Positions 13,274-35,358 are shown, counted from the first letter of the stretch. The stretch: 64,000 bases of DNA from an uncultured Methanosarcinales archaeon (GCA_964618315.1 CAZTWQ010000002.1:22980-86979); one strand, 5' to 3'. The notes: generated by a model from the letters alone, not told the origin. Numbers and translations: made by a program.

Positions 13274-14545
13274 TCACTCCATGGTTTCTATTCTGATAAC
13301 TACTGTCTTTTCTTTCGTAACTTCTAAAGCATTTATCTCTTTTACTGCCTTTACTAAGTTTTCTTCAACTGATTCATGGGTCGTGACTATAACAGGCACT
13401 ATATTCTGATTGATCTCTTTTTGTTCTACAGCTGCGATGCTAATCTTGTTGTCACCTAAGATTTTTGATATCTTAGCAAGTACACCTGCTTTATCCTCAA
13501 CAGTATACCTAAGATAGTATCTTGACTTAATCTTGTTCTTGTCCTTTACTTTTACATCTTCAAAATAGGACACGTCTTGTTTTCCTTTTGCTATATCTAT
13601 CACATCGCCTAGAACTACTGTTGCTGTCGGCAGCTGACCAGCTCCTTTTCCATATAGCATTGATTTTGTAGTGTTCTCAGCTACAAGATAGATAGCATTA
13701 AGCTCATCTTTAACAGAAGCCAGTTCATGATTTATAGGTATCATCGTTGGATGGACTCGTAATTCAATCTCATCATCTGTTTTTTTGGCTATTGCCAGAA
13801 GTTTTATCTTATAACCTATATCTTTTGCATATTTTAGATCGTTTTTGTTTATCTTTGTGATGCCATTTGTAAATATATCATCTTCTATCTCTGCATTAAA
13901 TGCTAATCTTGATAGTATCACTAGTTTTTGTGCAGCATCCTTCCCTTCAACATCAAATGCAGGGTCTGCTTCTGCAAAGCCAAGATCTTGTGCTGTCTTT
14001 AATGCATCTTTGTATTCCTGACCTTCTTCCATCTTTGTCAATATGAAATTAGTCGTTCCATTCAGTATACCATATATCTCTTTTATATTGTCTGCTGCAT
14101 AACTTTCTTTTATAGTCTTTATTATAGGTATACATCCGCCGACTGCAGCTTCAAATGCAATGTTTACATCATTGTTTTTTGCAGCTTCAAATATCTCTTT
14201 GCCATGTTTTGCAATAACTGCTTTGTTTGCAGTAACAACATGTTTTTTGTTCTTTAAAGCACTTAGAATTATATCTTTTGCAGGAGTATAACCCCCTATA
14301 AGCTCTATTATCAAGTTGATGTCTGGGTCGTTGATCAATTCGTTGTAATCTTTTGTCAATTGATCGTCTTTTAATCCAAGATCTTTCGCATTACCTAGAT
14401 TACAATCACAGACCTTTTTTAAGTTAATCTTAATACCTGTTCTTTTCTCTATAGTATCCTTGTTATTATTTAGTATCTTAACTACTCCACCGCCTATTGT
14501 TCCGATTCCCACTAATCCAATATTTATTTCTGGCATCTTAATCAT
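13274..14545 (-). CDS. hom: homoserine dehydrogenase with C-terminal ACT domain
   Basis: 423 aa with GLVGIGTIGGGV Rossmann loop and LNGTTNFILT motif. Confidence 0.9.
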   Translation of the reverse strand: MIKMPEINIGLVGIGTIGGGVVKILNNNKDTIEKRTGIKINLKKVCDCNLGNAKDLGLKDDQLTKDYNELINDPDINLIIELIGGYTPAKDIILSALKNKKHVVTANKAVIAKHGKEIFEAAKNNDVNIAFEAAVGGCIPIIKTIKESYAADNIKEIYGILNGTTNFILTKMEEGQEYKDALKTAQDLGFAEADPAFDVEGKDAAQKLVILSRLAFNAEIEDDIFTNGITKINKNDLKYAKDIGYKIKLLAIAKKTDDEIELRVHPTMIPINHELASVKDELNAIYLVAENTTKSMLYGKGAGQLPTATVVLGDVIDIAKGKQDVSYFEDVKVKDKNKIKSRYYLRYTVEDKAGVLAKISKILGDNKISIAAVEQKEINQNIVPVIVTTHESVEENLVKAVKEINALEVTKEKTVVIRIETME

Positions 14546-14813: not shown

Positions 14814-15725
14814 ATGGGAATTTTAGCTAGGGTTACAGGTGCAATTGGTGCAGCTATACATCATAGTGGAGCATCTAATGGAGCAGCAAAGACTATAGAT
14901 GATTTTGCTGTTACTGATGATTTTGATTCTGATTTGGCTGCATTGAATGAATTTGTGTGTTCTGCTGTTTCTGTACTTTATCCCACTACTACATTTCATA
15001 GTTATAGGGGAACTCTTGAAGAATTTCAAACAGATAGTGGTTACAGTTCTTTTGTGGATAATATGACTCATAATCTTTGTATGATGAATCCAAAAAATAG
15101 GTATGAGACAAAGGCTGTTAAATCTGATGCAGGAAAACCAGCAGCAGCTGCAAATGAGGCAAAAGAAGCAGAAGCTGGAGTTACAATCGCAACAACAAAA
15201 GAAGAAGTTCCAAATACAAATGACCAATATAGATTTGTTAATGCTATTGGTGCGTTTGTAGCTCATTATCAAACAGAATCAAGAAATTTATTAGGTGGTG
15301 TATTAGATTTTGCTTATACTATGGCAGCAACAGAAGGAGTTAAGAGTCATACCCTTACTAGTCCGAATGGGAGAGGATTACCTCCAGGTTATAATCCTGA
15401 GAGGATAGGTGGGGTAGAAACTAGGGGCCATTATTCTGGTGATTTTGAGAGGGGGGCCAATTTAATTGTAAACATAGCAGGTGATGATCTTGGTACTCAT
15501 ATTGCTAATTTAATCAATAATGTAATTATTGAAAATGCAAAGGTTAATGTTAGATATACCAATGATCATGAGGTAGCTGATTTTGAGTATTTTAATGATG
15601 ATAAAGCAGAAGCAGTTAGATTAGCAGAACATATTGGCATGGTTGATCAAGTTAATGGCGTATTTAATCAGATTCAAGCACCTTATATGAAAAAGAAGCA
15701 AGCTCCAGCACAACCCCAACCATAA
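14814..15725 (+). CDS. hypothetical protein (Lys-poor, atypical composition)
   Basis: 303-aa ORF with a TATA-like GGTTTAAATATAAG about 30 nt upstream. No family recognised. Confidence 0.55.
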   Translation: MGILARVTGAIGAAIHHSGASNGAAKTIDDFAVTDDFDSDLAALNEFVCSAVSVLYPTTTFHSYRGTLEEFQTDSGYSSFVDNMTHNLCMMNPKNRYETKAVKSDAGKPAAAANEAKEAEAGVTIATTKEEVPNTNDQYRFVNAIGAFVAHYQTESRNLLGGVLDFAYTMAATEGVKSHTLTSPNGRGLPPGYNPERIGGVETRGHYSGDFERGANLIVNIAGDDLGTHIANLINNVIIENAKVNVRYTNDHEVADFEYFNDDKAEAVRLAEHIGMVDQVNGVFNQIQAPYMKKKQAPAQPQP

Positions 15726-15953
15726 AAAAAACTTCTTAGTTTTTACTACCAACATTAGACAAATACCTCGTCGTTAAATCAGTAAACTATATAAACAGGT
15801 AATTAATAATCCAGAATAATTACGTGTTTTGTTTTAGATAAGGCGATTGAAACGGTAAATCAACTCTTAAACAAAAGTGAATCTTATTTCTTAGATTATC
15901 TTATGGAATGTAGTTTTGAGAATAAAAGAATTATAAATGGAGGATGATTGAGA

Positions 15954-17042
15954 ATGGCAGATAAACCAGCAGCAAAACCAGTATATATAGGTGAAGATGG
16001 ACTAACAAACTATAGATTTTCATTTGGACCATGGAATATCCATGAAGGTGCAGATCCATTTGGACCAACAGTCAGACCAACAGTTGAGTTTGCAGATAAA
16101 GTTGCACTTTATAGGGATTTAGGTTATGAAGCGATACAGTTTCACGATGATGATGTTGTGCCTAACGTTAGTGACCGCTCGCATAGGTCAGTTATGCGAA
16201 GGGCAGGGGAAGTTAGAAAACTGATTGATGGCGAAGGATTACAACCAGAATTTGTCGCCCCTAGATTATGGGAAGATGCTAGAACTATTGATGGAGCATA
16301 TACTTCTAATAGTGCAACTGATCGTCAATACGCTAGGATTAGATCAAGAGTTGCTATCGATATAGCTGATAGGCTCGGAACAGACCTGATAGTGCTTTGG
16401 TTAGCAAGAGAAGGAACCTATACTCGAGCAGCAAAAGATCCTAAACGTTCAACAGATTATTTAGTAGGGGCAATCAATGATATGTTAGGGCATAATCCTA
16501 ATATTAGAATTGCAATTGAGCCAAAGCCCAATGAGCCGGCGGGTCAAGCATATATACCTACAATAGGGCATGCTGTAGCTTTGGCTTATATGACTGATGA
16601 TCCTAGTAGGGTAGGCGTAAATCTGGAGAGTGCTCATGTGATATTGGCTAACTTAGACCCTTCAGATGAAATGGGATTTGCAATGGCAGCTAATAAGCTT
16701 TTGACAGTTCACTTAAACGACCAGGAAGGGCCTCAATTTGACCAAGACCTATCATTCGGATCAGCAAATCTACTAAGGGCTTTTCACCAAGTAAGAGTTC
16801 TTGAACAAAATGGTTATGGTAGAAATGGGGAAATTGTAGGCTTAGATGTTAAGGCAATGCGAACTCAAAGGGCAGATGTTGCAACAAAGCATTTAAAGTA
16901 TAGCAGAGAGACGTTTGAAACTCTGCTTCAAAAGGTTAGAACCCTAGATGAAGGTGCTGTGGCTCATCTTACAGAAGCAAGGGATTATGAAGAATTAAAC
17001 CGTTTAATAAAGAACCACATTATGGGTGTAGACACAAGATAA
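15954..17042 (+). CDS. xylose-isomerase-like TIM-barrel enzyme, class I (short, actinobacterial-type) architecture
   Basis: FSFGPWNI...DPFG, FHDDDVVP, LWLAREG, IEPKPNEP, HLNDQ...FDQDL motifs parallel class-I xylose isomerase. The ATG at 15954 lies 8 nt after GGAGGATGA. The track's TTG start at 15948 sits between that site and the ATG. Confidence 0.7.
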   Translation: MADKPAAKPVYIGEDGLTNYRFSFGPWNIHEGADPFGPTVRPTVEFADKVALYRDLGYEAIQFHDDDVVPNVSDRSHRSVMRRAGEVRKLIDGEGLQPEFVAPRLWEDARTIDGAYTSNSATDRQYARIRSRVAIDIADRLGTDLIVLWLAREGTYTRAAKDPKRSTDYLVGAINDMLGHNPNIRIAIEPKPNEPAGQAYIPTIGHAVALAYMTDDPSRVGVNLESAHVILANLDPSDEMGFAMAANKLLTVHLNDQEGPQFDQDLSFGSANLLRAFHQVRVLEQNGYGRNGEIVGLDVKAMRTQRADVATKHLKYSRETFETLLQKVRTLDEGAVAHLTEARDYEELNRLIKNHIMGVDTR

Positions 17043-17096
17043 ATCTTTTTTATTTTTTTATAATTAATAAAAGAAATATTAACGAGGGGATGTAGA

Positions 17097-18530
17097 ATGG
17101 CAGAACAAATGGCACCAGTTGCACAGAAAGCAATAGATATGTATGAAAGAAAAGATTTTTGTACTGGAATTGCAGGGGCAGTACCTTATGAACCAGGCAC
17201 AATATTAACACCTAAATTAAAGGGTGGAAATCAAATTATTTTCAGGGATTATGATTCAAATGAAGATATAATCTACAAAAAGAGTGATGGAACTATCGTT
17301 CAATCAACTATGGGTGCAACAGTCAATCCTTCATTAGCATATTGGCATGCAATGAGGGGTACTGGTCAAGACCCATTTGGAGCTCCGACAATGGTTAGGG
17401 AATGGGCTCAACCAACAGATGAAATGGAAGCTGCAGAATGGACAATGGTAGCAACATTTCAGATTTGTAAAAGACTAGGGCTTGATTATTGTTTTCACGA
17501 TGAAGATATTGCACCCAGAGGTGCATCTTTAACAGAATATAGAAGTAACCTTGACCATATGGCTGAATTTGCTTATGGTTTACAACAACATACTGGTGTT
17601 GGACTTAGATGGAATACATCTAATATGTTTAGTGATCCCAGATTTGCACATGGAGCAGCCACTAACCCAGATGCTACAGTACTTGCACATGCAGGAGCAC
17701 AAGTAAAAAAAATGATTGAAGTAGGAAAGTACTTGGGTGCTAAAAATTATGTATTCTGGGGCGGTAGAGAAGGATATGAAACTTTATTAAACACAGATAT
17801 GGGAAGAGAACAAGCACATTTAGCTAGATTTTTGCATATGGCAGTAGATTACGCAAAAGAAATTGGATTTGATGCACAATTCTTAATAGAACCAAAAGCA
17901 AAAGAGCCAACAAAACACCAATATGATTTTGATGCAGCAACAGTTATAGGATTTTTAACACAGCATGGCCTTAGGGATCATTTTAAACTTAATGTCGAAG
18001 CTAATCATGCAACTTTAGCTACTCATACATTTGAACATGATTTAACTGTTTCTTCTATGAATGGTATGTTGGGGAGTATTGATGCAAATAGGGGAGATAC
18101 ATTACTTGGATGGGATACAGATCAATTTCCATTAGATGTCTATTCAAATGTTATGGCTATGATGGTTGTTCTAGGTCAGGGTGGTCTTGAAAATGGTGGC
18201 TTTCATTTTGATGCAAAGCTAAGAAGAGGATCTACAGATTTAGAAGATATATTTATTGCTCATACTGGAGCAATGGATGCTCTTGCTAGGGGGGCTAGGG
18301 TAGCTGCAAAAATGAGTAGGGATGGGGCGTTATCTGATTTTGTAGCAGAAAGATATGCTTCATTTGATGATGGTATAGGTAAAGCATTTGAAAATGGCGA
18401 GGTTAGTCTAAGAGAACTCGAAGCATTTGCTTTAGCACATGAACCTGAACCAATTAGTGGTAAGCAAGAATTGCTAGAAAATGTAGTTAATCAATACATT
18501 CAAATGGGTACCCATGAATTAGCTCAATAA
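17097..18530 (+). CDS. xylA: xylose isomerase, class II
   Basis: 477 aa with FCFHDEDIAP, VFWGGREGY, LIEPKAKEPTKHQYDFD, NVEANHATLA and GSIDANRGD..LGWDTDQFP motifs. Confidence 0.9.
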   Translation: MAEQMAPVAQKAIDMYERKDFCTGIAGAVPYEPGTILTPKLKGGNQIIFRDYDSNEDIIYKKSDGTIVQSTMGATVNPSLAYWHAMRGTGQDPFGAPTMVREWAQPTDEMEAAEWTMVATFQICKRLGLDYCFHDEDIAPRGASLTEYRSNLDHMAEFAYGLQQHTGVGLRWNTSNMFSDPRFAHGAATNPDATVLAHAGAQVKKMIEVGKYLGAKNYVFWGGREGYETLLNTDMGREQAHLARFLHMAVDYAKEIGFDAQFLIEPKAKEPTKHQYDFDAATVIGFLTQHGLRDHFKLNVEANHATLATHTFEHDLTVSSMNGMLGSIDANRGDTLLGWDTDQFPLDVYSNVMAMMVVLGQGGLENGGFHFDAKLRRGSTDLEDIFIAHTGAMDALARGARVAAKMSRDGALSDFVAERYASFDDGIGKAFENGEVSLRELEAFALAHEPEPISGKQELLENVVNQYIQMGTHELAQ

Positions 18531-18610
18531 TTTTATTTTTTATTTTATTTTTAAATTTTAAATCAAAAAAAGAGGCTTGACTTGATATAGTAATATCATA
18601 GGTAATTATA

Positions 18611-19768
18611 ATGGCAGCAATAGACGGAATGTTAACAAGATCAAAGCTTGAAGATGAACTAGAAGGAGAACGTCGTTATTCATTTGATTATAAAGACGGC
18701 GCTTCTGTATGGTTGACTGAATTTGGAGCAAGAGCTATAGGCTTGTTCCATTCTTCTGATTCTAATACTATGAATGGTGTTTGGACTCCACCAAACACTA
18801 AAGAAGTTACTCAAAGAATAAGAAGTGCAGGCAGTTATACTGAAGATATCTTGGGTGGAGAAAGAGGGTGGTTTGGGAATGAAGCAGGGTTTCATGATTG
18901 GGATAATTGGAAGGTCCAGACCTCCATGGATCCTGGAAGATTTGAGACTATAAATCATATGATCGATGCTTTTTTATTTCGTAATTCAGGAACATTAGAA
19001 GATTTTCAGACAAATGATAGATATAAATTTGAAGTTGATAGAACTTTCTCAAAGCTTGAAGACCCTTTTTCTGCAACTGATGTAACTTATGTCGGTTTTG
19101 GTCTGCGTTATTCAATTGCTATAACATCTACAGATCTTAGTAGAATCAATAATCCAAAAGTAAATCCCTGGTCTTTGATGACTACTTATTCAGGAACTAA
19201 AGATTATCCAGGAACAGTTATAGCGATAACAAATCCAGGTGCTAAATCAATAACTTATGAAGATGATAAACAGGGTTTGCCTATGGGAGAAAGAGTAAGG
19301 ATAGAAGATGCTGCTGTTTATTTTAGGACTGATAATGTTGGATGTCATCAGATCGCTGTTAAGCCTGAAGACCTAAGATATGTAGATGATCATGCTGTAC
19401 TGATGAAGGTCAACCAAGTTCCAGACGGTTCTGGATTATATGAATTGACAGTCAAAAGAGTTCCAGACACACCATTAGACAGGAATCTTCCTGCAACATG
19501 GCAAGACATCCATGACATACCCCATTATAATCCTGAAGGTGAAAGGGGAACATTGCAGGCATATAATGGACCTGCACCAAGTGATGCAACTCAAAGATTT
19601 ACAGAGATGGAATTTATGCTGGCTCCTTTAGTGCGTACTAGGGGTGGCTATGAAAGAACAGTCCATCTTGAAGTGATACAATATAGGGGAGAATTCGATA
19701 AGATAGTTGGACTAGTGCAAAGGATTGGGCAGATGAGCAATGTACCTTATCTTTTTGCTAGTGAATAA
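18611..19768 (+). CDS. hypothetical protein within the sugar operon
   Basis: 385 aa, same strand, 80-nt gap from xylA. No family recognised. Confidence 0.55.
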   Translation: MAAIDGMLTRSKLEDELEGERRYSFDYKDGASVWLTEFGARAIGLFHSSDSNTMNGVWTPPNTKEVTQRIRSAGSYTEDILGGERGWFGNEAGFHDWDNWKVQTSMDPGRFETINHMIDAFLFRNSGTLEDFQTNDRYKFEVDRTFSKLEDPFSATDVTYVGFGLRYSIAITSTDLSRINNPKVNPWSLMTTYSGTKDYPGTVIAITNPGAKSITYEDDKQGLPMGERVRIEDAAVYFRTDNVGCHQIAVKPEDLRYVDDHAVLMKVNQVPDGSGLYELTVKRVPDTPLDRNLPATWQDIHDIPHYNPEGERGTLQAYNGPAPSDATQRFTEMEFMLAPLVRTRGGYERTVHLEVIQYRGEFDKIVGLVQRIGQMSNVPYLFASE

Positions 19769-19801
19769 ATATTAAAGAAAAATTTTGGAGGATGATATAA
19801 A

Positions 19802-21010
19802 ATGGCACAACCAAATATAATGTATGATCAGAGAAACACACCAGACAGTCAATTTACAGCTAATAGGGGTGCAGTTAGTGTAGCTATAGAAACTTGTCAG
19901 GAAGGAATTTCAAAAGGGGCTAGAATTCTTACGGTAAATGATAGTGAAGGTGGACTCCAGTATGAAGTGCAGTTGTCACATGGTATGAATATTGGTCCAG
20001 ATTCTTCTTATAAGGGTAAGAGTATATTTTGGGATGCGCCAAATCCTTTAAGAGTTTATTCAGAGGCAGAGATGGACACGGAATTACAAAGAGCAAAAAC
20101 TCATAAAAAAGATGGTGCTGTAATTGGTGGTCTAGGTGGTTGGCTTGATACTTTTAATGCTGGGTTAATATTGTGTGGTCTGGATTGTTGCGGTTCTCCT
20201 GGAGAGGACCCTGTTACTGGAGAATCTTTAACTCTACACTCAAGAATTGGACTTCTTCCAGCTGAAAATGTTACTGTAAGATATCAACAAATTGGTGAAG
20301 CTAGATACCAAGTTGTAATTGAGGGGGATGTTACTCAATATATGGGGGATGTTCCTAGTTACAAACTACATAGAAGGATAACAACAGACGTTGGTGGAAA
20401 TGAAATAGGGGTTGAGGATACAGTTGAAAACCTTACTGATGTTACATTACCACTCGATGCACTATACCATATACAACTTGGTGGAGCTGCACTGGAGAAA
20501 GGTTCTGTATTTAGTACTCCTGCTATTGCGCACCTAGATAGAGATGATGATGCTAAAGCTGGAAGAGCGAATATAAACTCAATGCCTGGAATTGGAGATA
20601 CTAAATATGAACGAGAAAAATTATGGTTCCATATCTTTCCAGAAATTGAAAAGGTAACGTCATTACTTAGAAATCCTGATGCTAGTTTTGGCGTTTATAC
20701 AAGACATGACCAAAGAGAGTTACCCCAATTTTCACAATGGCAACAAAATGGTGGTTGGCAGTTTAAGATCGAAGACCCTGAAAACTATAAAGAAGTGTGG
20801 TATGTGAATGCTCCTGAGCCAGGATTTACCAGATGTCCAAATAGGTCTGTTGAGAGAGAAGAAGGAAGACTTCAATATCTTGGACCAAGAGAGAGAAGAA
20901 CTGTGCACGTTGTAGTTGGAGCATTGGATCAGCAATCGCAAATAATGTCAATTGAAGACATCATTAAACAGCATAAATCTGTTCCAAGAGATGAATTTAT
21001 AGCTGCGTAA
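19802..21010 (+). CDS. hypothetical protein (possibly mutarotase/DUF4432-like fold; weak)
   Basis: 402 aa with a GGAGG Shine-Dalgarno site. The N-terminal pattern GGLQYEVQLSHGMNIGPDSSYKGKSIFW resembles aldose-epimerase-like DUF4432 proteins, from memory only. Confidence 0.5.
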   Translation: MAQPNIMYDQRNTPDSQFTANRGAVSVAIETCQEGISKGARILTVNDSEGGLQYEVQLSHGMNIGPDSSYKGKSIFWDAPNPLRVYSEAEMDTELQRAKTHKKDGAVIGGLGGWLDTFNAGLILCGLDCCGSPGEDPVTGESLTLHSRIGLLPAENVTVRYQQIGEARYQVVIEGDVTQYMGDVPSYKLHRRITTDVGGNEIGVEDTVENLTDVTLPLDALYHIQLGGAALEKGSVFSTPAIAHLDRDDDAKAGRANINSMPGIGDTKYEREKLWFHIFPEIEKVTSLLRNPDASFGVYTRHDQRELPQFSQWQQNGGWQFKIEDPENYKEVWYVNAPEPGFTRCPNRSVEREEGRLQYLGPRERRTVHVVVGALDQQSQIMSIEDIIKQHKSVPRDEFIAA

Positions 21011-21045
21011 TCATAAATTATAATTTAGGGGGGAATGATTGTAAA

Positions 21046-22680
21046 ATGGCAGAACAAAGAAGATTATCTTTAGGATTAGATTCAAGCACACAAGGCATAA
21101 AAGCTGTTGTTATTGATGTGGATTCTGGGCAGACAGTCTATGAAAATGCCCTTAGTTATGATGAAGATCCCAGATTAGCAAAATATAATGTTGATGGAAG
21201 TATATTCATGCCTTCAAAACTAGGTCTTGCTGAGCAAGATCCAAGAATGTTTGTCGCTTCTTTAGATGCTATTTTTGAAGATATGGGTAGAAGTGAAGAA
21301 TTTGATATGGGTGAAATAAGGGTTATAAATGATTCTGGACAGCAGCATGGTCATGTTTATTTGAATGGGCAATCTAGACAAAAGTTTGCTCAGCTTCAGA
21401 CAGGAGACTCTGCAAGCAGCAACTTAACTACTATCTTAGATGGATGTTTTTCATATCCTGGTGCGCCAATCTGGAAAACAGACAATACTCAAGCTGAGGC
21501 AGATTATCTTAGGCAGGCAGCTGGTGGTAAAGAACAAATGATTCGTCTTACTGGTTCTGATTCTCCATTAAGGTTTACAGCAGCACAAATGATGATGATT
21601 GGAAGATATATGCCAGAAACCATTGCAGATACAGAAACTGTTCAGCTTATCAGTAGTTTTATTCCTGCAATACTTGCTGCAAATACAAGATCTCCTTTGG
21701 ATATTGGGAATGGTGCTGGAACTTCTATTATGGATTATGCGCAGAGAACAAATTCTCAGGTAATGATTGAAGCAGCTGCAAGATATTGTAGAATAGAATC
21801 TTGGGATTTTGCATCAAAGCTTCCTGGTTTAACAGCACCTAATTCTATTGTTGGAATGGCCTCTAAATATCTCCAGCAAAAGTATGGGTTTAGGGCTGAT
21901 TGTATGGTTACTGCTGGATCAGGTGATAATCCTCAACTAAAGGTAATGACTGAAGATGACTTATTAACATTAGGTACGAGTGGAGTTTATATTATTTCTA
22001 CTGATGGCAATACATTTGACATGACAGGGGTTGGAAATGCTATGTATGACGGTCTTGGAAGGCCTTTGTTGTTTAGATGTAGAAGTAACTGTGCTACTGG
22101 TATGGATAGGATCAGGGCAGTTAATGGTTTAGGGCCAAAGGATTACGCTACAGCAGATGATGCAATTGAACAAGAACCTTTTGGAAAATATATCTATATC
22201 TGGCATCCTGATGGAGCAGAAACATTACCTATTTCTCCTATGCTTGAAGAACCTTATGTTGAAGGTTTTGGTTCATCAGGCGGATTAGGACCTGAATATG
22301 CAGGAGTAGTTGATTCTGTAATCGGAGCAATTCGTGCATATTCTGGATCTGATGAATCAGATTCTAAAAAGCCTCTTCTTTTATCTGGAGGTCCATCTAA
22401 TAGTAGGCAAATAAAGTTGAGGGCAAGTGGTATTTTTGGTGGGAGGCCAGTAATCTCAATGGGTGATGTTGGAGCTGCACTTGGTGCAGCTGTTGCAGGT
22501 GCTGATGCTTATTTAAATAGATTAGCAGAAGAACATGATATTGAATTGCTTTGTGGGAATGTATTGCCTAGAAGTGAACCAGTTATAGCTGGTCCAGAAA
22601 TTGTTGCAGCATATAATGGGAAAGGTATGTTTTTAGATAGATTAACAGCAGCTTATGATAAAGTAATTGCTGGAAAATAA
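21046..22680 (+). CDS. FGGY-family carbohydrate kinase, xylulokinase-like (eukaryote-type long form)
   Basis: 544 aa with LGLDSSTQGIKAVVID N-terminal motif, SGQQHGHVY, and LTGSDSPLRFTAAQ. Confidence 0.8.
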   Translation: MAEQRRLSLGLDSSTQGIKAVVIDVDSGQTVYENALSYDEDPRLAKYNVDGSIFMPSKLGLAEQDPRMFVASLDAIFEDMGRSEEFDMGEIRVINDSGQQHGHVYLNGQSRQKFAQLQTGDSASSNLTTILDGCFSYPGAPIWKTDNTQAEADYLRQAAGGKEQMIRLTGSDSPLRFTAAQMMMIGRYMPETIADTETVQLISSFIPAILAANTRSPLDIGNGAGTSIMDYAQRTNSQVMIEAAARYCRIESWDFASKLPGLTAPNSIVGMASKYLQQKYGFRADCMVTAGSGDNPQLKVMTEDDLLTLGTSGVYIISTDGNTFDMTGVGNAMYDGLGRPLLFRCRSNCATGMDRIRAVNGLGPKDYATADDAIEQEPFGKYIYIWHPDGAETLPISPMLEEPYVEGFGSSGGLGPEYAGVVDSVIGAIRAYSGSDESDSKKPLLLSGGPSNSRQIKLRASGIFGGRPVISMGDVGAALGAAVAGADAYLNRLAEEHDIELLCGNVLPRSEPVIAGPEIVAAYNGKGMFLDRLTAAYDKVIAGK

Positions 22681-22706
22681 TCTTTATTAAATGGAGGTAA
22701 ATTAAA

Positions 22707-23921
22707 ATGACAGGAAACAAAACAACATTTATGTATGCAGGACATATATGTCTTGATATACTTCCAGGTATTCCAGTTCAACAGTCATTAGACTTAGAAA
22801 AAATAGCAAGTCCTGGAGCACTTGTTCAGGTTATTGAACCAATAATCGGTACTGGTGGGCCTGTTTCTAACTCTGGAATTGCAGCTCATATAATTGGGGG
22901 GCAGATAGGGTATACTGCATTACTTAATGGTAAGATTGGTGACGATGATCTTGGGAAGGTTCTCCAAGCAAAAATAGCAGAAAGAGGATTGGATCCAGGA
23001 GCCATGACTGTGGATGGAACAACTAAAACTTCTTATACTGTAGTAATTGGCTTTGACGATACTAATGGGGGTACAAGAGATAGAGTATTTTTTCATGGCC
23101 CTTTAGCAAATGATACATTTGGATTTGAAGATGTTGCATGGGATAGTGCTGGGGAAGCAGATGGAATTCATTTAGGATACCCTCCATTGATGAGGCTGCT
23201 TTATTCTGATGGTGGAGCTACTCTTAGTAAAATTATGAGGTATGCAAAAGAATTAGGTTTAACAACAAGTCTTGATATGGCAGCTTGTGATCCAAATTCT
23301 GATGCTGGAAAAGCTGATTGGGATTCAATTCTTCGAATGTCTTTACCTAGTGTTGATATGTTTACACCTAGTATAGGTGAGACATTGTATATGACTGATA
23401 GGGCGTTGTTTGATGAACTTGATGAAACAAAAACAGATCTTGTTGATCGTGTAGATGGTAATCAAATTTCTTCTGTTTCTGAAAAATTAAGTGGATATGG
23501 GAATGAAATTCCAATTATTGTTCTTAAAATGGGGCATAGGGGAGTATATATGGTAACAGGTAGTAGAGAAAGCCTTGAAAGAATGGGGAGATTTAAACCT
23601 GAAGATCTTGATGCGTGGGCTAATAGAGAATTGTGGCATACTAGTTATCATGCAGAATTCCCGATGGCAACCGGAGCAGGAGATACAACAATTGCAGGTA
23701 TGCATGTTGCAATGCATATGGGATTATCACCTGAAAGTGTTTTAGAAAGAGGCACACTTTATGGTTGGCAATGTGTTGGTGCTCCTGATGCTCTTGGTGG
23801 TCTAAAACCTTGGAGTGAGTCAACGACAGCAGGATTAACAAAAAATCCTCTTGAAGTTAAAGGGAAAGGGTGGAAAGAAGTTGGAGGGGGATTGTATGCT
23901 GGCCCGAGAAACAAAGGTTAA
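22707..23921 (+). CDS. PfkB/ribokinase-family sugar kinase
   Basis: 404 aa with C-terminal GAGDTTIAG signature of PfkB kinases. Confidence 0.75.
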   Translation: MTGNKTTFMYAGHICLDILPGIPVQQSLDLEKIASPGALVQVIEPIIGTGGPVSNSGIAAHIIGGQIGYTALLNGKIGDDDLGKVLQAKIAERGLDPGAMTVDGTTKTSYTVVIGFDDTNGGTRDRVFFHGPLANDTFGFEDVAWDSAGEADGIHLGYPPLMRLLYSDGGATLSKIMRYAKELGLTTSLDMAACDPNSDAGKADWDSILRMSLPSVDMFTPSIGETLYMTDRALFDELDETKTDLVDRVDGNQISSVSEKLSGYGNEIPIIVLKMGHRGVYMVTGSRESLERMGRFKPEDLDAWANRELWHTSYHAEFPMATGAGDTTIAGMHVAMHMGLSPESVLERGTLYGWQCVGAPDALGGLKPWSESTTAGLTKNPLEVKGKGWKEVGGGLYAGPRNKG

Positions 23922-24059
23922 TTCATTTATTTCCTCAATTTTATATAATTTATATATTTAACCTACACATTTTTAAATAGAACTGTATTTTAGTAGATTA
24001 ATTCTTAGTTATTAGCATAGTTAATAATTAGTTGAAATGATGTTATTGGGTTGAATAAT

Positions 24060-25472
24060 ATGGCTGGAACAATTTTAAGTGTAACAAAAAGTGGAAGCAA
24101 TACCCCTACTGAGAGTCTTCCTGAAGAAATTCGTAATAGAGAAACTCACCAGGTAGATATAGGAGCATCATATTATGCTGGTTCATTAACAATTCCAAGC
24201 CTTAATCAGGCATTTAGCGTATTTGATCCTGCACCTATACTAGAAGAAGAGATTGGATTAGTAGGCGATTCTGGAAAAGGGGGAACAAGTAAAGTTTTTA
24301 GAGGTAGTTATGGTGATAGGCAGGTATGTGCTATAAAAGTCATGGATTGGCGAGCACTTTTAGGGCGTTCACCTGATTATATTGAAGATTATCTGCGTAA
24401 ATTTGGTGGAGAGGGCAGAGATGTTCAAACTATGTTTCGTAGGTGCAGTGATGATCCTAGATTAGCAAGGATAATTCAAGTACATAAATATGGGTCTTAT
24501 ATCATACCTCATATTATTATGGAATTTGTTGATGGCACTGACCTTGATAACATTGTTTTAGATAGGACTATCAGTACAAATTTAACTCCTGGACTTAGCA
24601 GAAGTGATGTAGTGAATAATATCTATCCAAGAGCCCCTGTTTCAACCATGGATGAAGTTCATCAATTGCTTAGGTCTTATATTCAATCTTCAGAAGGATT
24701 AGAACTTCTTCATGAACAGAGTATTATCCATAGAGATATTAAACCAGCAAATATATTAGTCGATAGAAGTGGCAATATTAGGATAACTGATCTAGGTCTT
24801 GTGAAATCCCTGGATACAGAAAGAGTAAGAACAAAAGGTACTATTATAGGAACTCCTGTTTTTATGTCTCCTGAACAGATAAATATGGCTCATAATAGCA
24901 GAGAATTGACTGTGCAAAGTGATACTTATTCATTTGGGGGTACAATGTTTTATACCCTTACAGGGCAATATGCACATTCTTTTTCTGATGCAGATACTTC
25001 AACAACTAAGGCAATGTGCATTGTAGGTAATGTAGCTGGAATTAAAGGATTTGATATATTAAGTGATGAACTTGGAGCAAGATTAGAATATTCATTTGGT
25101 CCTATAAAAGATTGGTGTTTAGAATATGACCCAGTTGATAGGCCTACTACAAAAGCAAGGACTTATGCTATTATTGGAGCTGCTGTAGAATTGGGTGTGG
25201 AACCAGAACATATTAGATCATATTCATATGTAGAGCAGGACGATGTTTCTGAATTAGTAGCAGATGTATATTCTTGGACTGATTCCAGAAGAAAAGAATT
25301 GGTAGTATCAGGCCTTAAGCATGCAGGGCATACAGATGTTATGGATGCATATGAAACAGCTCTTAATCAAACTGCATATTCTGAAGTTGATACAAGCAAG
25401 CTAAAACTTTCTGAAAGATTAACATTAGCTGCTAATGCAGTTATAAATATAATGTCTGGTAGCAATCAATGA
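24060..25472 (+). CDS. Hanks-type Ser/Thr protein kinase with uncharacterised C-terminal domain
   Basis: GKGGTSKVF Gly loop, CAIKVM, HRDIKPANIL, TDLG, and SPE motifs. The first ATG is at 24060; the track starts at a TTG at 24051. Confidence 0.85.
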   Translation: MAGTILSVTKSGSNTPTESLPEEIRNRETHQVDIGASYYAGSLTIPSLNQAFSVFDPAPILEEEIGLVGDSGKGGTSKVFRGSYGDRQVCAIKVMDWRALLGRSPDYIEDYLRKFGGEGRDVQTMFRRCSDDPRLARIIQVHKYGSYIIPHIIMEFVDGTDLDNIVLDRTISTNLTPGLSRSDVVNNIYPRAPVSTMDEVHQLLRSYIQSSEGLELLHEQSIIHRDIKPANILVDRSGNIRITDLGLVKSLDTERVRTKGTIIGTPVFMSPEQINMAHNSRELTVQSDTYSFGGTMFYTLTGQYAHSFSDADTSTTKAMCIVGNVAGIKGFDILSDELGARLEYSFGPIKDWCLEYDPVDRPTTKARTYAIIGAAVELGVEPEHIRSYSYVEQDDVSELVADVYSWTDSRRKELVVSGLKHAGHTDVMDAYETALNQTAYSEVDTSKLKLSERLTLAANAVINIMSGSNQ

Positions 25473-25597: not shown

Positions 25598-26674
25598 ATG
25601 GATAAATTAAAAGTAGGAATATTAGGTGCAACTGGAATGGTTGGACAAAGGTTTATATCTTTGTTAGATGATCATCCTTGGTTTAATGTAGTAGCAGTAG
25701 CTGCTTCTCCAAGATCAGCAGGAAAGAAATATTCAGAAGCTGTAGAAGGAAGATGGGTATCTAAAAAAGATATCCCTTCAGATGTTAAGGATCTTGTAGT
25801 TTCAGATGTTGCAAATATAGATGACATGAAAGGAAAAGTTGATTTTGTGTTTTCAGCTATAGAAGCTTCCAAAGAAGAGATTAGAGAATTTGAGAATAAA
25901 TACGCAGAGAATGATATTCCTGTTGTGTCAAACAACTCAGCTCATAGGTGGACAAAAGATGTTCCTATGGTAGTTCCAGAGATCAACCCTCAGCATATTG
26001 AGATGATCGACATACAAAGAAAGAACCATGGATGGAACAAGGGTTTTGTAGTTGTAAAACCAAATTGCTCATTGCAGAGCTACCTGCCAGCTATTGCTCC
26101 ATTAATGAAATTTAATCCTAAGAAAATTATTGTAACTACAATGCAGGCTATTTCAGGAGCAGGAAAAACATTTGAAACATATCCAGAAATCTTAGATAAT
26201 GTTGTACCTAATATTGGCGGAGAAGAAGAAAAAACTGAAAAAGAACCATTAAAGATATTGGGAAAGATTGAGGATGGAGAGATCAAGAATTTTGAAGGTA
26301 TAGATATTAGTTCAACTACAACAAGAGTTCCTGTTACAGACGGACATATGGCAACTGTATATGTTGAATTTGAGAACAAACCAACAAAGGAAGATATCTT
26401 AGAGATATGGAAAAACCACAAAGCAGAACCTCAGGAATTAGGTTTGCCAAGTGCTCCAAATCCATTATTAATATATCACGAAGATGAGTTTAGACCTCAG
26501 ACTAAACTAGACAGAGATGCTGGAAAAGGAATGGCAATAAGCATCGGAAGACTTCGTGATTGTAATGTGTTTGACTATAGGTTTGTTGCTTTAAGTCATA
26601 ATACAATTAGAGGTGCAGCTGGTGGTGCCGTTCTTGTAGCTGAATTGTTGAAAGCTAAAGGTTATTTGGGTTGA
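25598..26674 (+). CDS. asd: aspartate-semialdehyde dehydrogenase
   Basis: 358 aa with GATGMVGQR loop, KPNCS active-site Cys, and SHNTIRGAAG. Confidence 0.9.
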   Translation: MDKLKVGILGATGMVGQRFISLLDDHPWFNVVAVAASPRSAGKKYSEAVEGRWVSKKDIPSDVKDLVVSDVANIDDMKGKVDFVFSAIEASKEEIREFENKYAENDIPVVSNNSAHRWTKDVPMVVPEINPQHIEMIDIQRKNHGWNKGFVVVKPNCSLQSYLPAIAPLMKFNPKKIIVTTMQAISGAGKTFETYPEILDNVVPNIGGEEEKTEKEPLKILGKIEDGEIKNFEGIDISSTTTRVPVTDGHMATVYVEFENKPTKEDILEIWKNHKAEPQELGLPSAPNPLLIYHEDEFRPQTKLDRDAGKGMAISIGRLRDCNVFDYRFVALSHNTIRGAAGGAVLVAELLKAKGYLG

Positions 26675-27073
26675 TTATTTCCCTAGATAAATAACTTCTT
26701 TTTCTTTTTTAAAATGAGGGTCTCCTGTTACTAATTGTAACTTATGGGCTTTTGCACTTTCATAAATCAAAGAATCACCTAAGCCCCATTTTTTCTTATG
26801 ATTTGTTTTAGCAGCATTTAAAGCTGTTTCAGCTTCAATAGGTATTAAGAAACACCTTGACATCATTAAAGATACAATTTTATCTGCGTGTTTTTCGTTT
26901 GTTTCTGATAAATATTTCTTGTATACTTCTGATAGATTAATTACACTAATAAATAACATTTGATCGCTATCTATGTAATTAGCTATTTGTTTACCTATTT
27001 TTGATCCATTAGCAAATTCTATCCAACACCAAGAATCAAGCAAAACGGTCAATTTCTTCCCTCTTGAATTCAC
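26675..27073 (-). CDS. vapC: PIN-domain toxin (VapC-like)
   Basis: 132 aa with acidic PIN residues (LLDS, SEV, GDS, TGD). It overlaps the upstream small ORF and abuts the asd stop codon. Confidence 0.65.
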   Translation of the reverse strand: MNSRGKKLTVLLDSWCWIEFANGSKIGKQIANYIDSDQMLFISVINLSEVYKKYLSETNEKHADKIVSLMMSRCFLIPIEAETALNAAKTNHKKKWGLGDSLIYESAKAHKLQLVTGDPHFKKEKEVIYLGK

Positions 27074-27230
27074 TCACTGTTGGAAATTTTCCAAAATAAG
27101 ACTTTTTTGGTTTTTTTATTTTACTTATTAATTTTTGAATAGTGTCGTCGTATGTTGGGGTGTCTAATTCTTCTTTTACCATCTTTAATAAGGAATATGT
27201 ATCATCCTTTAGTGCAATTGTTGTTGACAT
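27036..27230 (-). CDS. small antitoxin-like protein (VapB-type partner)
   Basis: 64 aa, immediately upstream of and overlapping the PIN gene. Confidence 0.45.
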   Translation of the reverse strand: MSTTIALKDDTYSLLKMVKEELDTPTYDDTIQKLISKIKKPKKSYFGKFPTVSEFKREEIDRFA

Positions 27231-27383
27231 TTATATCACCATATATTATAGTGCTATATGTTATATTTAAATGTTTTGGTTTTTTGTTTAGAAACATTTT
27301 AGAAAAATAAAATTTTTAATCCTTTAAGTTTCTCGTTTCACTCGAACCGTAAAGTTTAAAAACACGATAATAACATTCTAACT

Positions 27384-27749
27384 ATGGCAACCTATAAGAA
27401 AATTGGAACTAAGACAGTAATCGGTTTAGTTGAACCAGTTATTTTGTATAGCAAGACTCAAGGCAACAAGACCATAATGGCTAAGATAGATACAGGAGCT
27501 TCAAAAAGCTCAATAGATGTCAACCTTGCTTCACAATTAAGATTAGGACCCATAATCAAGTCAAAGCTAGTCAAGTCAGCTTCAGGAAATAAACTAAGAC
27601 CAGTTATAGAATCTGTTGTAGAGTTGGCTGGTAAGAAGATGAAAGAAGAGTTTACTTTAGCAGATAGATGGCATATGAAATATAGAGTATTGATTGGCCA
27701 GAATGTGTTAAAACATGGTTATTTGATAGATCCATCATTGAAAAAATGA
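27384..27749 (+). CDS. retropepsin-like aspartic protease (RimB / DUF785-type)
   Basis: 121 aa with the KIDTGAS active-site motif. It overlaps rimK by 4 nt. Confidence 0.65.
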   Translation: MATYKKIGTKTVIGLVEPVILYSKTQGNKTIMAKIDTGASKSSIDVNLASQLRLGPIIKSKLVKSASGNKLRPVIESVVELAGKKMKEEFTLADRWHMKYRVLIGQNVLKHGYLIDPSLKK

Positions 27750-28819
27750 AGGCAGCTATAATATCCCTGGGCTCAACCAGTTCAAAATGGACTGCTGAGG
27801 CAATGGAAAAGTATTTTGATAGTGTAGATCTTATAGACCTAAAAGGTATTGAGGTTAATCTTTCTTCTGGTAAGTCAATTGTTTTGTATGATGGAAAACC
27901 ATTGAATGATTATGATTGTATCCTTGCAAAAGGCAGTTTCAGATATGCTCAGACTTTAAGAGCCGTAACTGGAGCATTGTATCCTACTACTTATATGCCG
28001 ATAAAGGCTGGTGCTTTTACAGCAGGGCATGATAAATTATTGACCCATTTATTTCTACAGCAGTCTAAGATTCCGATGCCTACTACATATTTAACTTCTT
28101 CACCAACAGCTGCTAAGAAGATATTAAAAAAAGTAAATTATCCTATCATATTTAAATTTCCTTCTGGAACAGGCGGCAAAGGAGTTATGTATGCAGAGAG
28201 TTATGCTGCAGCTTCGTCTTTGATGGATGCTTTAGAATCATTAAGACAGCCTTTCTTGATCCAGGAATATATAGAGACTAGTGGTGAAGATATCCGAGCA
28301 ATAGTTGTTGGCGGTAAATTAGTTGCTGCAATGAAAAGAAAAGCAGTAGTTGGTGAGAAACGAGCTAATATCCATGCAGGTGGAGAAGGAGAAGCTTTCC
28401 TGCCTGATGCCCATATGAAGAAGATGGCTATTGAGGCTGCAAAAGCGATTGGGGCTGAGATTTGCGCTGTCGACATATTAGAAAGCATAAAAGGGCCAGT
28501 AGTTATAGAACTTAACTTAAGCCCTGGTTTGCAGGGAATAACTAAAGCAACGGGTGTTGATGTTGCAGATAAAATGGCAAAATACCTTTATCAAAGAACT
28601 AAAGAGTATACTGAGAAAGGCACCAAGAAAAATACAGTAGAAGTCATGAAAGAATTGAATATCGATAAATCCAATGAACAGCAGATTGTTACTAATCTTG
28701 ATTTTAGGGGAGAAAGAATACTGCTCCCTAAACTAGTCACTGATATGTGCAAGTTCAGTGATAAGAATGAGTGTATTGTTAAGGTCAAGAAAGGTAAGAT
28801 AGAGATTGAAAAGATTTGA
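27746..28819 (+). CDS. rimK: RimK-family ATP-grasp ligase
   Basis: 357 aa with ATP-grasp motifs (FKFPSGTGGKGV, QEYIE, AVDILES..GPVVIELN). Confidence 0.8.
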   Translation: MKAAIISLGSTSSKWTAEAMEKYFDSVDLIDLKGIEVNLSSGKSIVLYDGKPLNDYDCILAKGSFRYAQTLRAVTGALYPTTYMPIKAGAFTAGHDKLLTHLFLQQSKIPMPTTYLTSSPTAAKKILKKVNYPIIFKFPSGTGGKGVMYAESYAAASSLMDALESLRQPFLIQEYIETSGEDIRAIVVGGKLVAAMKRKAVVGEKRANIHAGGEGEAFLPDAHMKKMAIEAAKAIGAEICAVDILESIKGPVVIELNLSPGLQGITKATGVDVADKMAKYLYQRTKEYTEKGTKKNTVEVMKELNIDKSNEQQIVTNLDFRGERILLPKLVTDMCKFSDKNECIVKVKKGKIEIEKI

Positions 28820-31070: not shown

Positions 31071-32240
31071 ATGGAAAATAAATTACTAGAAGAAATAGGC
31101 TTAACAAAAGGTGAGATATCTGTTTACTTTGCGTTATTAGAACTAGGGAGCTGCACAGTAGGACCTATAGTAGACAAGGCTAAAGTCAGCTCTTCCAAAG
31201 TATATAATATCCTTGAGAGGCTTACCCATAAAGGACTCGTTAGTTTTGTCATAAAAGAAAATACAAAATATTTTGAGGCCTCCCCCCCAGAACAGATCCT
31301 GGATTATCTTAAAGAACGAGAAGAGAGTATAAGTGAACAAAAAAGAAAGATCAAAGACATCCTCCCTGAACTTGAGCTTAAAAGGAAACTGTCAAAGTAT
31401 AAGAATGAAGCTACTGTGTTTAAAGGATTAAAAGGGGCAAAAACTGCTTTTGATGATGTTCTTAAATCCCTAAAAAAAGGAGAAGAATATCATGTATTGG
31501 GCTTTACCGATGTTTCTGGTTCGCTTCTTGCATTTCTCAAGAACTTTCACAGGCAAAGATCAAAAAAAGGCATCAAAGTAAAACTATTATTTTCAGAACA
31601 AGGAAAAGAATATGCTGAAACAATAAAAAGCATCCCCTCTACAGAGATAAAATTTGCTCCAAGCCAATTATTAAGTTCTTCTTTTGTATTGATGTACAAT
31701 GATAAAGTCTTGATTACAGTTGCTACTAAAGACAATCTGACCTTATTTAAGATAGAGAACAAAGAAGTAGCTGATTCATTTAGATCACAGTTTAAGTTAA
31801 TCTGGAACCAAGATACTATTGTTAATAAGGGGTTTAAAGCAATGAGTGATGCTTTGTATAATATTATCAATACAGTTGATCCTAAAAAAGGTTATTCTGC
31901 TTTAAATGCTTGTTGGGGTACTGAGCCATACAGGCAGAAATACATTGATTTTTTTAAGAAATACCATAAAGAGAGAATGAGATTAAAGGTTAATGCAAAG
32001 TTACTATTTAATCCTGGAATTCGATATATCCTTGAAGATAATAAAAGCAATTATGAAAAATATCTCCAATACAAAGTAATGCCTTATAAACCAGAATCTC
32101 CTGTTGAGGTTTTTACTACAGAAGATAAAGCTATACTCATTATACAAGAAAAAGAACCAATAGTTATAACAATCAATAATAAAGAAGTTTCAAAATCTTT
32201 TAAGACTAACTTTGAGGCATTGTGGAGCATATCTAAGTAA
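31071..32240 (+). CDS. TrmB-family transcriptional regulator with large C-terminal domain
   Basis: N-terminal wHTH LGLTKGEISVYFALLELGSCTVGPIVDKAKVSSSKVYNILERLTHKGLV. It ends 12 bp before the argF operator module. Confidence 0.7.
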   Translation: MENKLLEEIGLTKGEISVYFALLELGSCTVGPIVDKAKVSSSKVYNILERLTHKGLVSFVIKENTKYFEASPPEQILDYLKEREESISEQKRKIKDILPELELKRKLSKYKNEATVFKGLKGAKTAFDDVLKSLKKGEEYHVLGFTDVSGSLLAFLKNFHRQRSKKGIKVKLLFSEQGKEYAETIKSIPSTEIKFAPSQLLSSSFVLMYNDKVLITVATKDNLTLFKIENKEVADSFRSQFKLIWNQDTIVNKGFKAMSDALYNIINTVDPKKGYSALNACWGTEPYRQKYIDFFKKYHKERMRLKVNAKLLFNPGIRYILEDNKSNYEKYLQYKVMPYKPESPVEVFTTEDKAILIIQEKEPIVITINNKEVSKSFKTNFEALWSISK

Positions 32241-32377: not shown

Positions 32378-33235
32378 ATGAACTTACTAGCATTAAATGA
32401 TTTGTCTGGAAAGGAAATAATAGATCTAATAGATGATGCTCTTTTAATCAAAGAAGATCCTGATAAATATTTTAATGTGTTGAAAGGAAAGACAATGGCT
32501 ATGCTATTTGAGAAAACTTCAACAAGAACCAGGATTAGTTTTGAAGTGGGTATGGCACAATTAGGGGGGCATGCTTTGTTTCTCGATTGGAAAAGTACTC
32601 AGTTAGGCAAAGCAAATCTTAAAGATGAGATCCAATGTATAGGAAGATACGTTGATCTAATCATGGCTCGTGTATATGATCATAAAGATATAGAAACTAT
32701 GGCTAAATATGGCGGAAAGCCAGTCATCAATGCTTTGAGTGACCTTTACCATCCATGTCAGATATTGGCAGACCTTATGACAATAAAGGAAAAGTTAGGA
32801 AAACTTAAAGGCATGAAATTAGCTTATGTTGGCGATGGAAATAATGTTTGTAATTCATTGATAATTGGATGTAAAAAAGTTGGTATGACAATTAATGTCG
32901 CTTGTCCAAAAGGTTATGAACCTACGGAAAAACCAGACATGTTGACCACTGATATTGAGAAAGCTGTTAAGGGTGTTGATGTTATATATACAGATACATG
33001 GGTATCCATGGGACAGGAAGCTGAGAAGAAAAAAAGATTAAAAGTATTTCCACCATATCAAGTAAACAATAAGATCTTAGGAAAAGCATTATTCATGCAT
33101 TGCCTGCCTGCATACAGGGGTTATGAAGTTACAGATGATGTTATTGATTCAAAACAAAGCATTGTTTTTGATCAAGCTGAAAATAGGCTGCATGCTCAAA
33201 AAGCAGTTATATTGAAACTGATGGGTAAAATTTAA
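32378..33235 (+). CDS. argF: ornithine carbamoyltransferase
   Basis: STRTR, HPCQ, DTWVSMG, and HCLPA motifs. Confidence 0.9.
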   Translation: MNLLALNDLSGKEIIDLIDDALLIKEDPDKYFNVLKGKTMAMLFEKTSTRTRISFEVGMAQLGGHALFLDWKSTQLGKANLKDEIQCIGRYVDLIMARVYDHKDIETMAKYGGKPVINALSDLYHPCQILADLMTIKEKLGKLKGMKLAYVGDGNNVCNSLIIGCKKVGMTINVACPKGYEPTEKPDMLTTDIEKAVKGVDVIYTDTWVSMGQEAEKKKRLKVFPPYQVNNKILGKALFMHCLPAYRGYEVTDDVIDSKQSIVFDQAENRLHAQKAVILKLMGKI

Positions 33236-33253
33236 TTTTAAGGGGTGTATCAG

Positions 33254-34414: not shown

Positions 34415-34416
34415 AA

Positions 34417-35298: not shown

Positions 35299-35358
35299 TA
35301 AAGTGTTTAACTTATCAGTTAGTAGGTTATAATTTTGTATATTGTTTAACTTGATAAA

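Follow-up and report, generated by a model that had tools for sequence, protein, structure and literature searches.

The block of genes at positions 14814–25472 of a 64,000 nt stretch of DNA from an uncultured archaeon (GCA_964618315.1 CAZTWQ010000002.1:22980-86979, recorded as Methanosarcinales; the whole stretch is from here on called the window) raises the question of which sugars its enzymes act on and from where it came to an archaeal genome. Six of the genes are predicted to encode two isomerases, two proteins of galactose-mutarotase fold and two sugar kinases, and the reading favoured here, with a probability of roughly 0.6, is that of an operon for sugar catabolism, foreign in origin, in which two three-step lines, each made up of a helper, an isomerase and a kinase, run in parallel. 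Xylose isomerase and xylulokinase have been stated to be absent from archaea with the exception of Halorhabdus (Sutter et al. 2020, PMC8551123), and no literature report of either enzyme in Woesearchaeota or other DPANN archaea, the group to which the host is assigned below, was found.

Operon architecture and the predicted xylose route

When the coding regions were analysed, six intact genes were found in succession on the + strand, encoding a class-I-like aldose-ketose isomerase of xylose-isomerase fold (XI1, 15954–17042), a predicted class II D-xylose isomerase, XylA (XI2, 17097–18530), a 385 amino acid (aa) galactose-mutarotase-fold protein that is a distant member of DUF6786 (18611–19768), a mutarotase-like DUF4432 protein of 402 aa (19802–21010), an FGGY-family kinase resembling human xylulokinase (21046–22680) and a divergent PfkB-family sugar kinase of 404 aa (22707–23921). 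The intergenic gaps are, in the same order, 54, 80, 33, 35 and 26 nt. Searches with Pfam and NCBIfam upheld the family assignments of the two TIM barrels related to xylose isomerase, of the FGGY and PfkB kinases and of a protein kinase located downstream of the six genes. All open reading frames (ORFs) of the initial annotation were present, with the gaps of 26–80 nt that it had described, and the two features which it had pointed out, Shine-Dalgarno sites and N-termini starting with MA, both exceed the background of the window: GGAG or GAGG occurs 4–18 nt before the start in four of the six genes as compared with 6 of 43 other genes (Fisher p = 0.012), and MA- begins five of the six proteins as compared with 3 of 43 (p = 1.7e-4). 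The sole notable hairpin followed by a run of T is located 5' of the first of the six genes, while the interior is without one. Judged by strand, short gaps and the lack of an internal terminator the genes would thus constitute one operon and be co-transcribed, in line with the operon-like architecture first suggested.

The isomerase XI2 scored 584.8 bits against the curated xylose-isomerase model TIGR02630 (cut-off 533.25) and matched the PDB entry 6int at 1.5e-142, with solved enzymes from Firmicutes and Thermotoga matching at about 1e-142. The class II motifs FHDEDI, EPKAKEP, NVEANHATLA, SIDANRGD and GWDTDQFP are all found in the protein, which in addition is extended by about 40 residues at its N-terminus, and these sequence comparisons identify XI2 as a true class II D-xylose isomerase (XylA). 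For the FGGY kinase the closest solved structure is human xylulokinase (4bc2), with a match of 1.5e-38 over residues 4–314, the sugar-binding N-domain, and with GQQHG, RFT and GDNP conserved between the two proteins; the name given to it by JGI is also xylulokinase, and the kinase is here proposed to be a D-xylulokinase. The earlier assignment of a xylose isomerase and an FGGY kinase to the conversion of xylose into xylulose-5-phosphate, rare in archaea, consequently holds, as XI2 passes its cut-off, the kinase is nearest to human xylulokinase and the literature agrees, and the chemistry from xylose to xylulose-5-phosphate can be regarded as a well supported prediction.

The two ~390-aa proteins that had been listed as unknowns could both be given a mutarotase fold by means of Pfam, PDB and AlphaFold2 combined with Foldseek, one as DUF4432 and the other as a distant member of DUF6786. 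The 402-aa protein matched DUF4432 (PF14486) with 153 bits (cut-off 32.5) and the PDB entry 3ty1, a 'hypothetical aldose 1-epimerase', at 4.8e-16; the family is named "aldose 1-epimerase family protein" by PGAP, and a search of the literature for DUF4432 returned nothing. The 385-aa protein itself has no match in Pfam or NCBIfam, a word-indexed homologue search returned only the protein itself, and a profile search of PDB sequences with its family gave no match. Fifty relatives were found among 1.84 billion cluster representatives, and DUF6786 (PF20583) is matched by 27 of 34 aligned relatives though not by the window protein. Modelling with AlphaFold2 gave a pLDDT of 31 from the single sequence and 94 with the family alignment, and the Foldseek search with the model returned galactose mutarotases (1lur, 1l7k and others) with probability 1.0 and TM scores of 0.43–0.50, at a sequence identity of 7–13%. 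The 385-aa protein hence has, with good confidence, the beta-sandwich fold of GalM (PF01263), but neither it nor the 402-aa protein matches the aldose 1-epimerase family PF01263. Glu91, Glu332, which is situated near the C-terminus, and two Gly are invariant in the 34 sequences of the 385-aa family. Both proteins are thus assigned a galactose-mutarotase fold, and mutarotase activity is suggested by that fold.

P0002, at 39% identity the one close relative of the 385-aa protein, was found on four metagenome contigs (L007–L010), its gene flanked on one side by a sugar kinase and on the other by XylA, which is 48% identical to XI2. Two further proteins (P0003 and P0004) are located on contigs too short to yield a context. 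In a scan of a collection of species-representative genomes, the host genome not included, only relatives with 22–28% identity appeared, in Asgard, Wolframiiraptor, Nitrososphaeria and Chitinivibrionales. In the first of the two proposed lines the 385-aa protein would supply or bind the right anomer of D-xylose, XI2 would convert D-xylose to D-xylulose and the FGGY kinase would turn D-xylulose into xylulose-5-phosphate.

Compared with known systems, the operon resembles bacterial xylAB and the genes of Halorhabdus in combining a class II XylA with a xylulokinase for the path from xylose via xylulose to xylulose-5-phosphate, and it resembles Halorhabdus also in the foreign look of the genes within an archaeon, although the host here is of DPANN type and not a haloarchaeon. 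Some Firmicutes xylose operons include a mutarotase, and the mutarotase-type helper recalls such xylAB operons with xylM, but the helper of the window is a DUF6786-like protein of GalM fold and not a PF01263 aldose 1-epimerase. Other differences from bacterial xylAB are that the kinase is nearer to human xylulokinase than to XylB, that neither XylR nor a transporter is found in the operon and that a second set of isomerase, helper and kinase is interleaved with the first. The xylose chemistry itself is already known, while novelty lies in the host lineage, the doubling of the architecture, the kinase of human type, the two unusual families of helpers and the XI1 subfamily. A complete-looking isomerase route for xylose is hereby placed in a DPANN archaeon, and DUF4432 and the DUF6786 branch receive a first functional context through their tie to sugar isomerases.

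A proposed second line around the divergent isomerase

Both isomerases had initially been annotated as xylose isomerases, which is true of XI2 only. XI1 scored 200.7 bits against the class I model TIGR02631, below the cut-off of 447, while it could be aligned residue by residue to solved class I xylose isomerases (E about 5e-47). The class I xylose (glucose) isomerases of Streptomyces, Thermus and Actinoplanes have the same fold as XI1, the C-terminal domain of which is shorter and different. The residues H54, D57, E181, K183, E217, H220, D255, D257 and D287 (S. rubiginosus numbering) are kept in XI1, meaning that the ring-opening His54 and Asp57, the catalytic Lys183 and the metal-2 ligands His220, Asp255 and Asp257 are all conserved. 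Among the metal-1 ligands of class I, which we take to be Glu181, Glu217, Asp245 and Asp287 in the same numbering, Asp245 is replaced by His253 (in the sequence VHLNDQ), and this is the only exception among the eight metal-ligand positions. The pocket loop, TTNLF in class I, reads APRLW in XI1, with Arg in place of Asn92. Both this replacement and D245H are invariant in 14 aligned family members (alignment A3), and the motifs FHDDD, EPKPNEP, ESAH and FDQD are aligned in XI1 and invariant across the subfamily. A precedent for His at the first metal site exists in L-rhamnose isomerase, where this site consists of Glu/Asp/His/Asp, and the His of XI1 would be positionally equivalent to it; the enzyme (E. 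coli RhaA type) is, as XI1, a two-metal aldose-ketose isomerase of xylose-isomerase fold. The match of XI1 to its model TIGR02635 is marginal (E = 3.6e-6), XI1 being far closer to the class I xylose isomerases.

The family of XI1 is represented at more than 590 metagenome loci by proteins mostly of 344 aa, 58–68% identical to XI1 and labelled only "TIM barrel protein" by NCBI. Members with a named origin belong to Planctomycetota, Sedimentisphaerales and Kiritimatiellales, and the family is common in PVC bacteria, while the closest match (68% identical) was found in a metagenome-assembled genome (MAG) of Nanoarchaeia and has the N-terminal extension in common with XI1. By sequence XI1 is therefore placed in a separate conserved class-I-like subfamily rather than among the standard xylose isomerases. 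No description of a third class of xylose isomerases was found in the literature, and the common and conserved family, with its clean metal-site change and fixed gene partners, makes XI1 a target for enzyme discovery.

As to these gene partners, 39 bacterial XI1 loci with enough downstream DNA were counted, and in 17–20 of them the XI1-type gene heads a fixed cluster with the order XI1, PIG-L deacetylase, a 309-aa protein, a PfkB kinase of ~405 aa, DUF4432 and an enzyme of the mannitol-dehydrogenase family, often with an FAD oxidoreductase upstream and an EamA transporter downstream. Neither XylA nor a xylulokinase accompanies XI1 in these loci. Examples with seven to eight genes are found in L032 (6414–17521), L065 (6369–19014) and L029 (4380–16692), and the FAD oxidoreductase of the cluster carries an F5/8-type C (galactose-binding-like) domain. 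The window shares with the cluster of the PVC bacteria an XI1 (58–68% identical) with the same invariant His metal site, a ~400-aa PfkB kinase, DUF4432 and a mannitol-dehydrogenase-family gene, the latter situated 18 kb away, but it is without PIG-L, the 309-aa protein and the FAD oxidoreductase, and its PfkB kinase and DUF4432 are distant relatives of those in the cluster. In a direct comparison XI1 was 66% identical and DUF4432 25% identical (E = 6e-22), whereas the mannitol-dehydrogenase-like protein matched with E = 2e-13 and PfkB with E = 0.087, a resemblance at family level only. On rhizobial plasmids DUF4432 genes were found beside genes for "sugar phosphate isomerase/epimerase" of xylose-isomerase fold and Gfo/Idh/MocA oxidoreductases, and also near an FGGY kinase and sugar ABC transporters.

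In the second of the two proposed lines DUF4432 would be the helper for a second aldose, XI1 with its His metal site and altered sugar pocket would isomerise this aldose to the ketose, and the long PfkB kinase would phosphorylate the product. The kinase matched PF00294 with 46.4 bits (cut-off 25.8), no substrate-specific NCBIfam model came near its cut-off, the match to 2-keto-3-deoxygluconate (KDG) kinase being faint, and the ketose formed by XI1 is its proposed substrate. The expectation of the initial annotation that the substrate range extends beyond xylose finds support in the additional isomerase and kinase, the two mutarotase-fold proteins and the neighbourhoods of XI1-type genes elsewhere. 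The assignments to family and fold, the conserved catalytic residues, the order of the genes, the neighbourhoods that recur elsewhere and lend support to each line, the composition and the lineage of the host are observed, and the chemistry of the first line is well supported. The pairing of the genes into two lines, the helper functions, the substrate of the second line and the fate of the sugar phosphates are to be read as suggestions drawn from gene content and neighbourhood.

Since class I xylose isomerases are the closest characterised relatives of XI1, nearly all catalytic residues are kept and both isomerases head one operon, it could be argued that all six proteins serve D-xylose and D-xylulose, with XI1 being redundant or having a different metal dependence and with the PfkB kinase acting on a side-product or in regulation. 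This appears unlikely when it is considered that XI1 reaches less than half of the class I cut-off, that it is part of a subfamily conserved in its own right, in which metal site and pocket carry invariant changes, and that its bacterial relatives, in a different fixed cluster, occur without XylA or xylulokinase.

The invariant Arg for Asn92 in the pocket loop (APRLW) points in another direction, towards an acidic or modified substrate rather than a neutral hexose in the second line, such as a uronate isomerised to a keturonate. A candidate for the next enzyme would then be the mannitol-dehydrogenase-family oxidoreductase encoded at 42271–43476 on the + strand (PF01232 and PF08125), which is of Lys-poor composition; the family includes fructuronate and tagaturonate reductases and it comes after DUF4432 in 20 of the 39 bacterial loci. 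On this account the gene product would be a keturonate reductase and PfkB a kinase of the 2-keto-3-deoxygluconate type, to which the faint KDG-kinase match as well as the PIG-L deacetylase and the FAD oxidoreductase with its galactose-binding-like domain in the bacterial clusters would fit. The probability of this alternative is nevertheless judged to be low, because no dehydratase or aldolase was found in the operon or in the examined bacterial clusters and the mannitol-dehydrogenase-like gene is separated from the operon by 18 kb. A functional link between this gene and the operon is possible, since in the XI1 clusters of bacteria DUF4432 is followed by a member of its family. No operator motif common to the region upstream of the block, the mannitol-dehydrogenase-like gene and a TrmB-family gene of the window was found.

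For the reading of two parallel lines there are several observations that weigh against it. The gene order interleaves the lines (XI1, XI2, helper 1, helper 2, kinase 1 and kinase 2), and the second line is drawn by analogy and not by orthology, since PfkB and DUF4432 match the bacterial cluster at family level only. Neither a sugar transporter nor a glycoside hydrolase nor a dedicated regulator was identified by family searches in the operon or adjoining it. The C-domain of the FGGY kinase is very divergent and barely aligns with 4bc2, and the kinase scored only 112.1 bits against the bacterial XylB model TIGR01312 (cut-off 380.25). The sugar kinase beside P0002 turned out to be unrelated to it and was ruled out as its counterpart. 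Canonical mutarotases use a catalytic His/Glu pair, presumably His170 and Glu304 in GalM of L. lactis, whereas the 34 sequences of the 385-aa family have no position with an invariant or nearly invariant His. The neighbours of the distant 385-aa relatives, finally, are radical SAM, NifS/NifU, SDR and deacetylase genes and give no sugar context.

A wider idea can be put forward tentatively, and with some doubt: XI1 may, together with DUF4432 and the long PfkB kinase, represent a widespread and previously undescribed route for a non-xylose sugar, possibly an acidic or modified hexose, with a third isomerase class with a His metal site that is abundant in PVC bacteria, and the DPANN archaeon may have joined it to a xylose route in which the helper is from a new family of GalM fold. 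DPANN archaea are usually seen as metabolically minimal and host-dependent, and if this were true, a supposedly host-dependent nano-archaeon would have its own capacity to ferment two sugars.

Origin of the block and identity of the host

The description of the block as acquired is backed by its amino acid composition and by an apparent lack of close homologues in related lineages, not by raw GC content. The eight genes at 14814–25472 have 3.3–4.7% Lys, as compared with 8–15% in the housekeeping genes, and the values for the block and the host genes are 3.9% vs 11.3% for Lys and 5.6% vs 2.7% for Arg. Raw GC is 0.39 in the block vs 0.347, whereas the GC content at third codon positions (GC3) is 0.21 vs 0.27; GC3 is lower in the block for 17 of 18 codon families, and GC1 and GC2 are higher. 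The excess GC is thus due to protein composition, being confined to codon positions 1 and 2, and the use of raw GC as a sign of recent transfer was rejected on account of the lower and not higher GC3. The shifts in Lys/Arg, GC1, GC2 and GC3 fall exactly at 14814 and 25472.

When homologues were searched for, no XI1 between 68% and 100% identity was found among 5.8 billion proteins and no 385-aa homologue between 39% and 100% among 1.8 billion, while the arginyl-tRNA synthetase (ArgRS) encoded in the window has a dense series of relatives at 61–79% identity, many of them at 72–79%. This identity gap, seen against the plentiful ArgRS relatives, together with the Lys/Arg composition supports a foreign but not recent origin of the block; at its synonymous sites the AT mutational equilibrium appears to have been reached. 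Where a genome is very rich in AT, foreign genes may be recognised by the Lys/Arg ratio and an unusually low GC3 and not by raw GC.

A cluster that is ancestral and vertically inherited, its composition set by functional constraint and not by transfer, would agree with a GC3 that is host-like or lower and gives no pointer to recent arrival, with the presence of the block on every contig carrying this asd gene, where island-free variants were not seen, and with the closest XI1 homologue and its common N-terminal extension occurring in another Nanoarchaeia MAG. That homologue, however, lies in other surroundings, next to an IS66 transposase, and the next-nearest relatives are from PVC bacteria. 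Housekeeping enzymes that are equally constrained (ArgRS, Asd and the Arg enzymes) are Lys-rich, the composition switches exactly at the block edges and the identity gaps of XI1 and the 385-aa protein persist despite the many ArgRS relatives, so that vertical inheritance is considered very improbable and a foreign origin is retained. The Nanoarchaeia contig (L026, 617–21062) carries a sugar island of another make-up, in which an L-arabinose isomerase, a 535-aa protein, the XI1-like gene and the IS66 transposase follow one another; nearby are genes for an FGGY kinase, for Gfo/Idh/MocA oxidoreductases and for a protein of galactarate/altronate dehydratase type, as well as a toxin-antitoxin-like pair. 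The 535-aa protein was considered as a counterpart of the FGGY kinase of the window and ruled out as unrelated.

The host is a DPANN archaeon of Woesearchaeales type, as concluded from the ArgRS relatives, an intron-bearing tRNA and an asd gene of archaeal/eukaryal type. The named ArgRS relatives (61–75% identical) carry the labels Woesearchaeota, Nanoarchaeota or Nanoarchaeia, with one exception labelled "bacterium". The tRNA, at 61595–61683, was found by Rfam and missed by ARAGORN and contains an 18-nt insert in the anticodon loop, the position of which fits an archaeal intron. The block was recovered, its proteins identical and its neighbours unchanged, from at least 24 contigs of independent metagenome assemblies and is for that reason not an assembly artefact. 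Its sequences on these contigs are 100% identical, as in a clonal population, which makes a calculation of dN/dS impossible.

Other Lys-poor, Arg-rich patches of low GC3 occur at 39195–43476, 45342–46370, 48179–49426, 51196–52986 and 54959–55714, comprising three orphans together with the mannitol-dehydrogenase-like gene, a PadR-like protein, a radical SAM protein, a 596-aa orphan and a 251-aa orphan. As such patches interleave with Lys-rich housekeeping genes, the genome gives the impression of a finely grained mosaic composed of two classes of genes.

Flanking genes and other features of the window

A 303-aa protein and a Hanks-type kinase had been described as flanking the operon, with the whole block set between hom and asd, and the coordinates agree with this. 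On the left the block is bordered by the homoserine dehydrogenase gene hom (13274–14536, - strand; NF004976 507 bits, cut-off 205), of host-type composition with 12.4% Lys, and on the right by the aspartate-semialdehyde dehydrogenase gene asd (25598–26674, + strand; NF006416 483.8 bits and TIGR00978 377.8 bits, cut-off 301.2), which is also of host-type composition. Among the three ORFs earlier left without a family, starting at 14814, 18611 and 19802, the last could be assigned to DUF4432 whereas the first two have no Pfam or NCBIfam match of their own. The one at 14814–15725 on the + strand encodes the orphan 303-aa protein (4.3% Lys, GC3 0.158) and is located 228 nt before the operon; matches were absent also from PADLOC, PHROGs and PDB, and its 90% cluster holds just three members. 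The protein was ruled out as a counterpart of the 309-aa protein of the bacterial clusters, the two sequences being unrelated.

Between this ORF and the operon, at 15793–15840 on the + strand, an inverted repeat was identified (AAACAGGTAATTA-N11-TAATTACGTGTTT followed by TTTTGTTTT), which may be terminator-like or operator-like. It has a predicted fold of -9.7 kcal/mol, a repeat of this kind with a T-run arises in 2% of shuffles, and only two were found in the whole 64 kb; scans with sigma-70 promoter and intrinsic-terminator consensus sequences came out at or below chance level. As the repeat with its T-run separates the ORF from XI1, the ORF probably constitutes a transcription unit of its own.

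The Hanks-type Ser/Thr protein kinase (470 aa, 24060–25472, + strand; PF00069 at 1.3e-28) begins 138 nt past the end of the operon, ATG at 24060 being a likelier start than TTG at 24051. Strong matches to single-gene kinase defence systems in PADLOC (PD-T4-6 and mad6) arise through the generic kinase domain only, and as the PADLOC and PHROGs matches are all of this kind they carry no weight for or against a defence role; the C-terminal ~150 residues gave no match.

Downstream of asd, and directly abutting it, a PIN-domain gene with a small upstream partner of 64 aa, toxin-antitoxin-like, is situated at 26675–27267, followed by a RimB-like/RimK ATP-grasp pair at 27384–28819. A TrmB-family regulator of the sugar-sensing type with host-type composition is encoded at 31071–32240, 5.6 kb past the block. 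For an archaeon of DPANN type the window is surprisingly rich in biosynthesis genes, containing aspartate kinase, hom, asd, thrC and a proposed homoserine kinase, an ArgJ-type operon (argF-J-B-D-C-G) accompanied by a Lyase_1 gene, and ribD and ribB (37–1356, 13274–14536, 25598–26674, 32378–38710, 43602–45345, 46490–47650 and 58427–61032). A gene for a Fic/DOC-family protein (1467–2345) adjoins the aspartate kinase.

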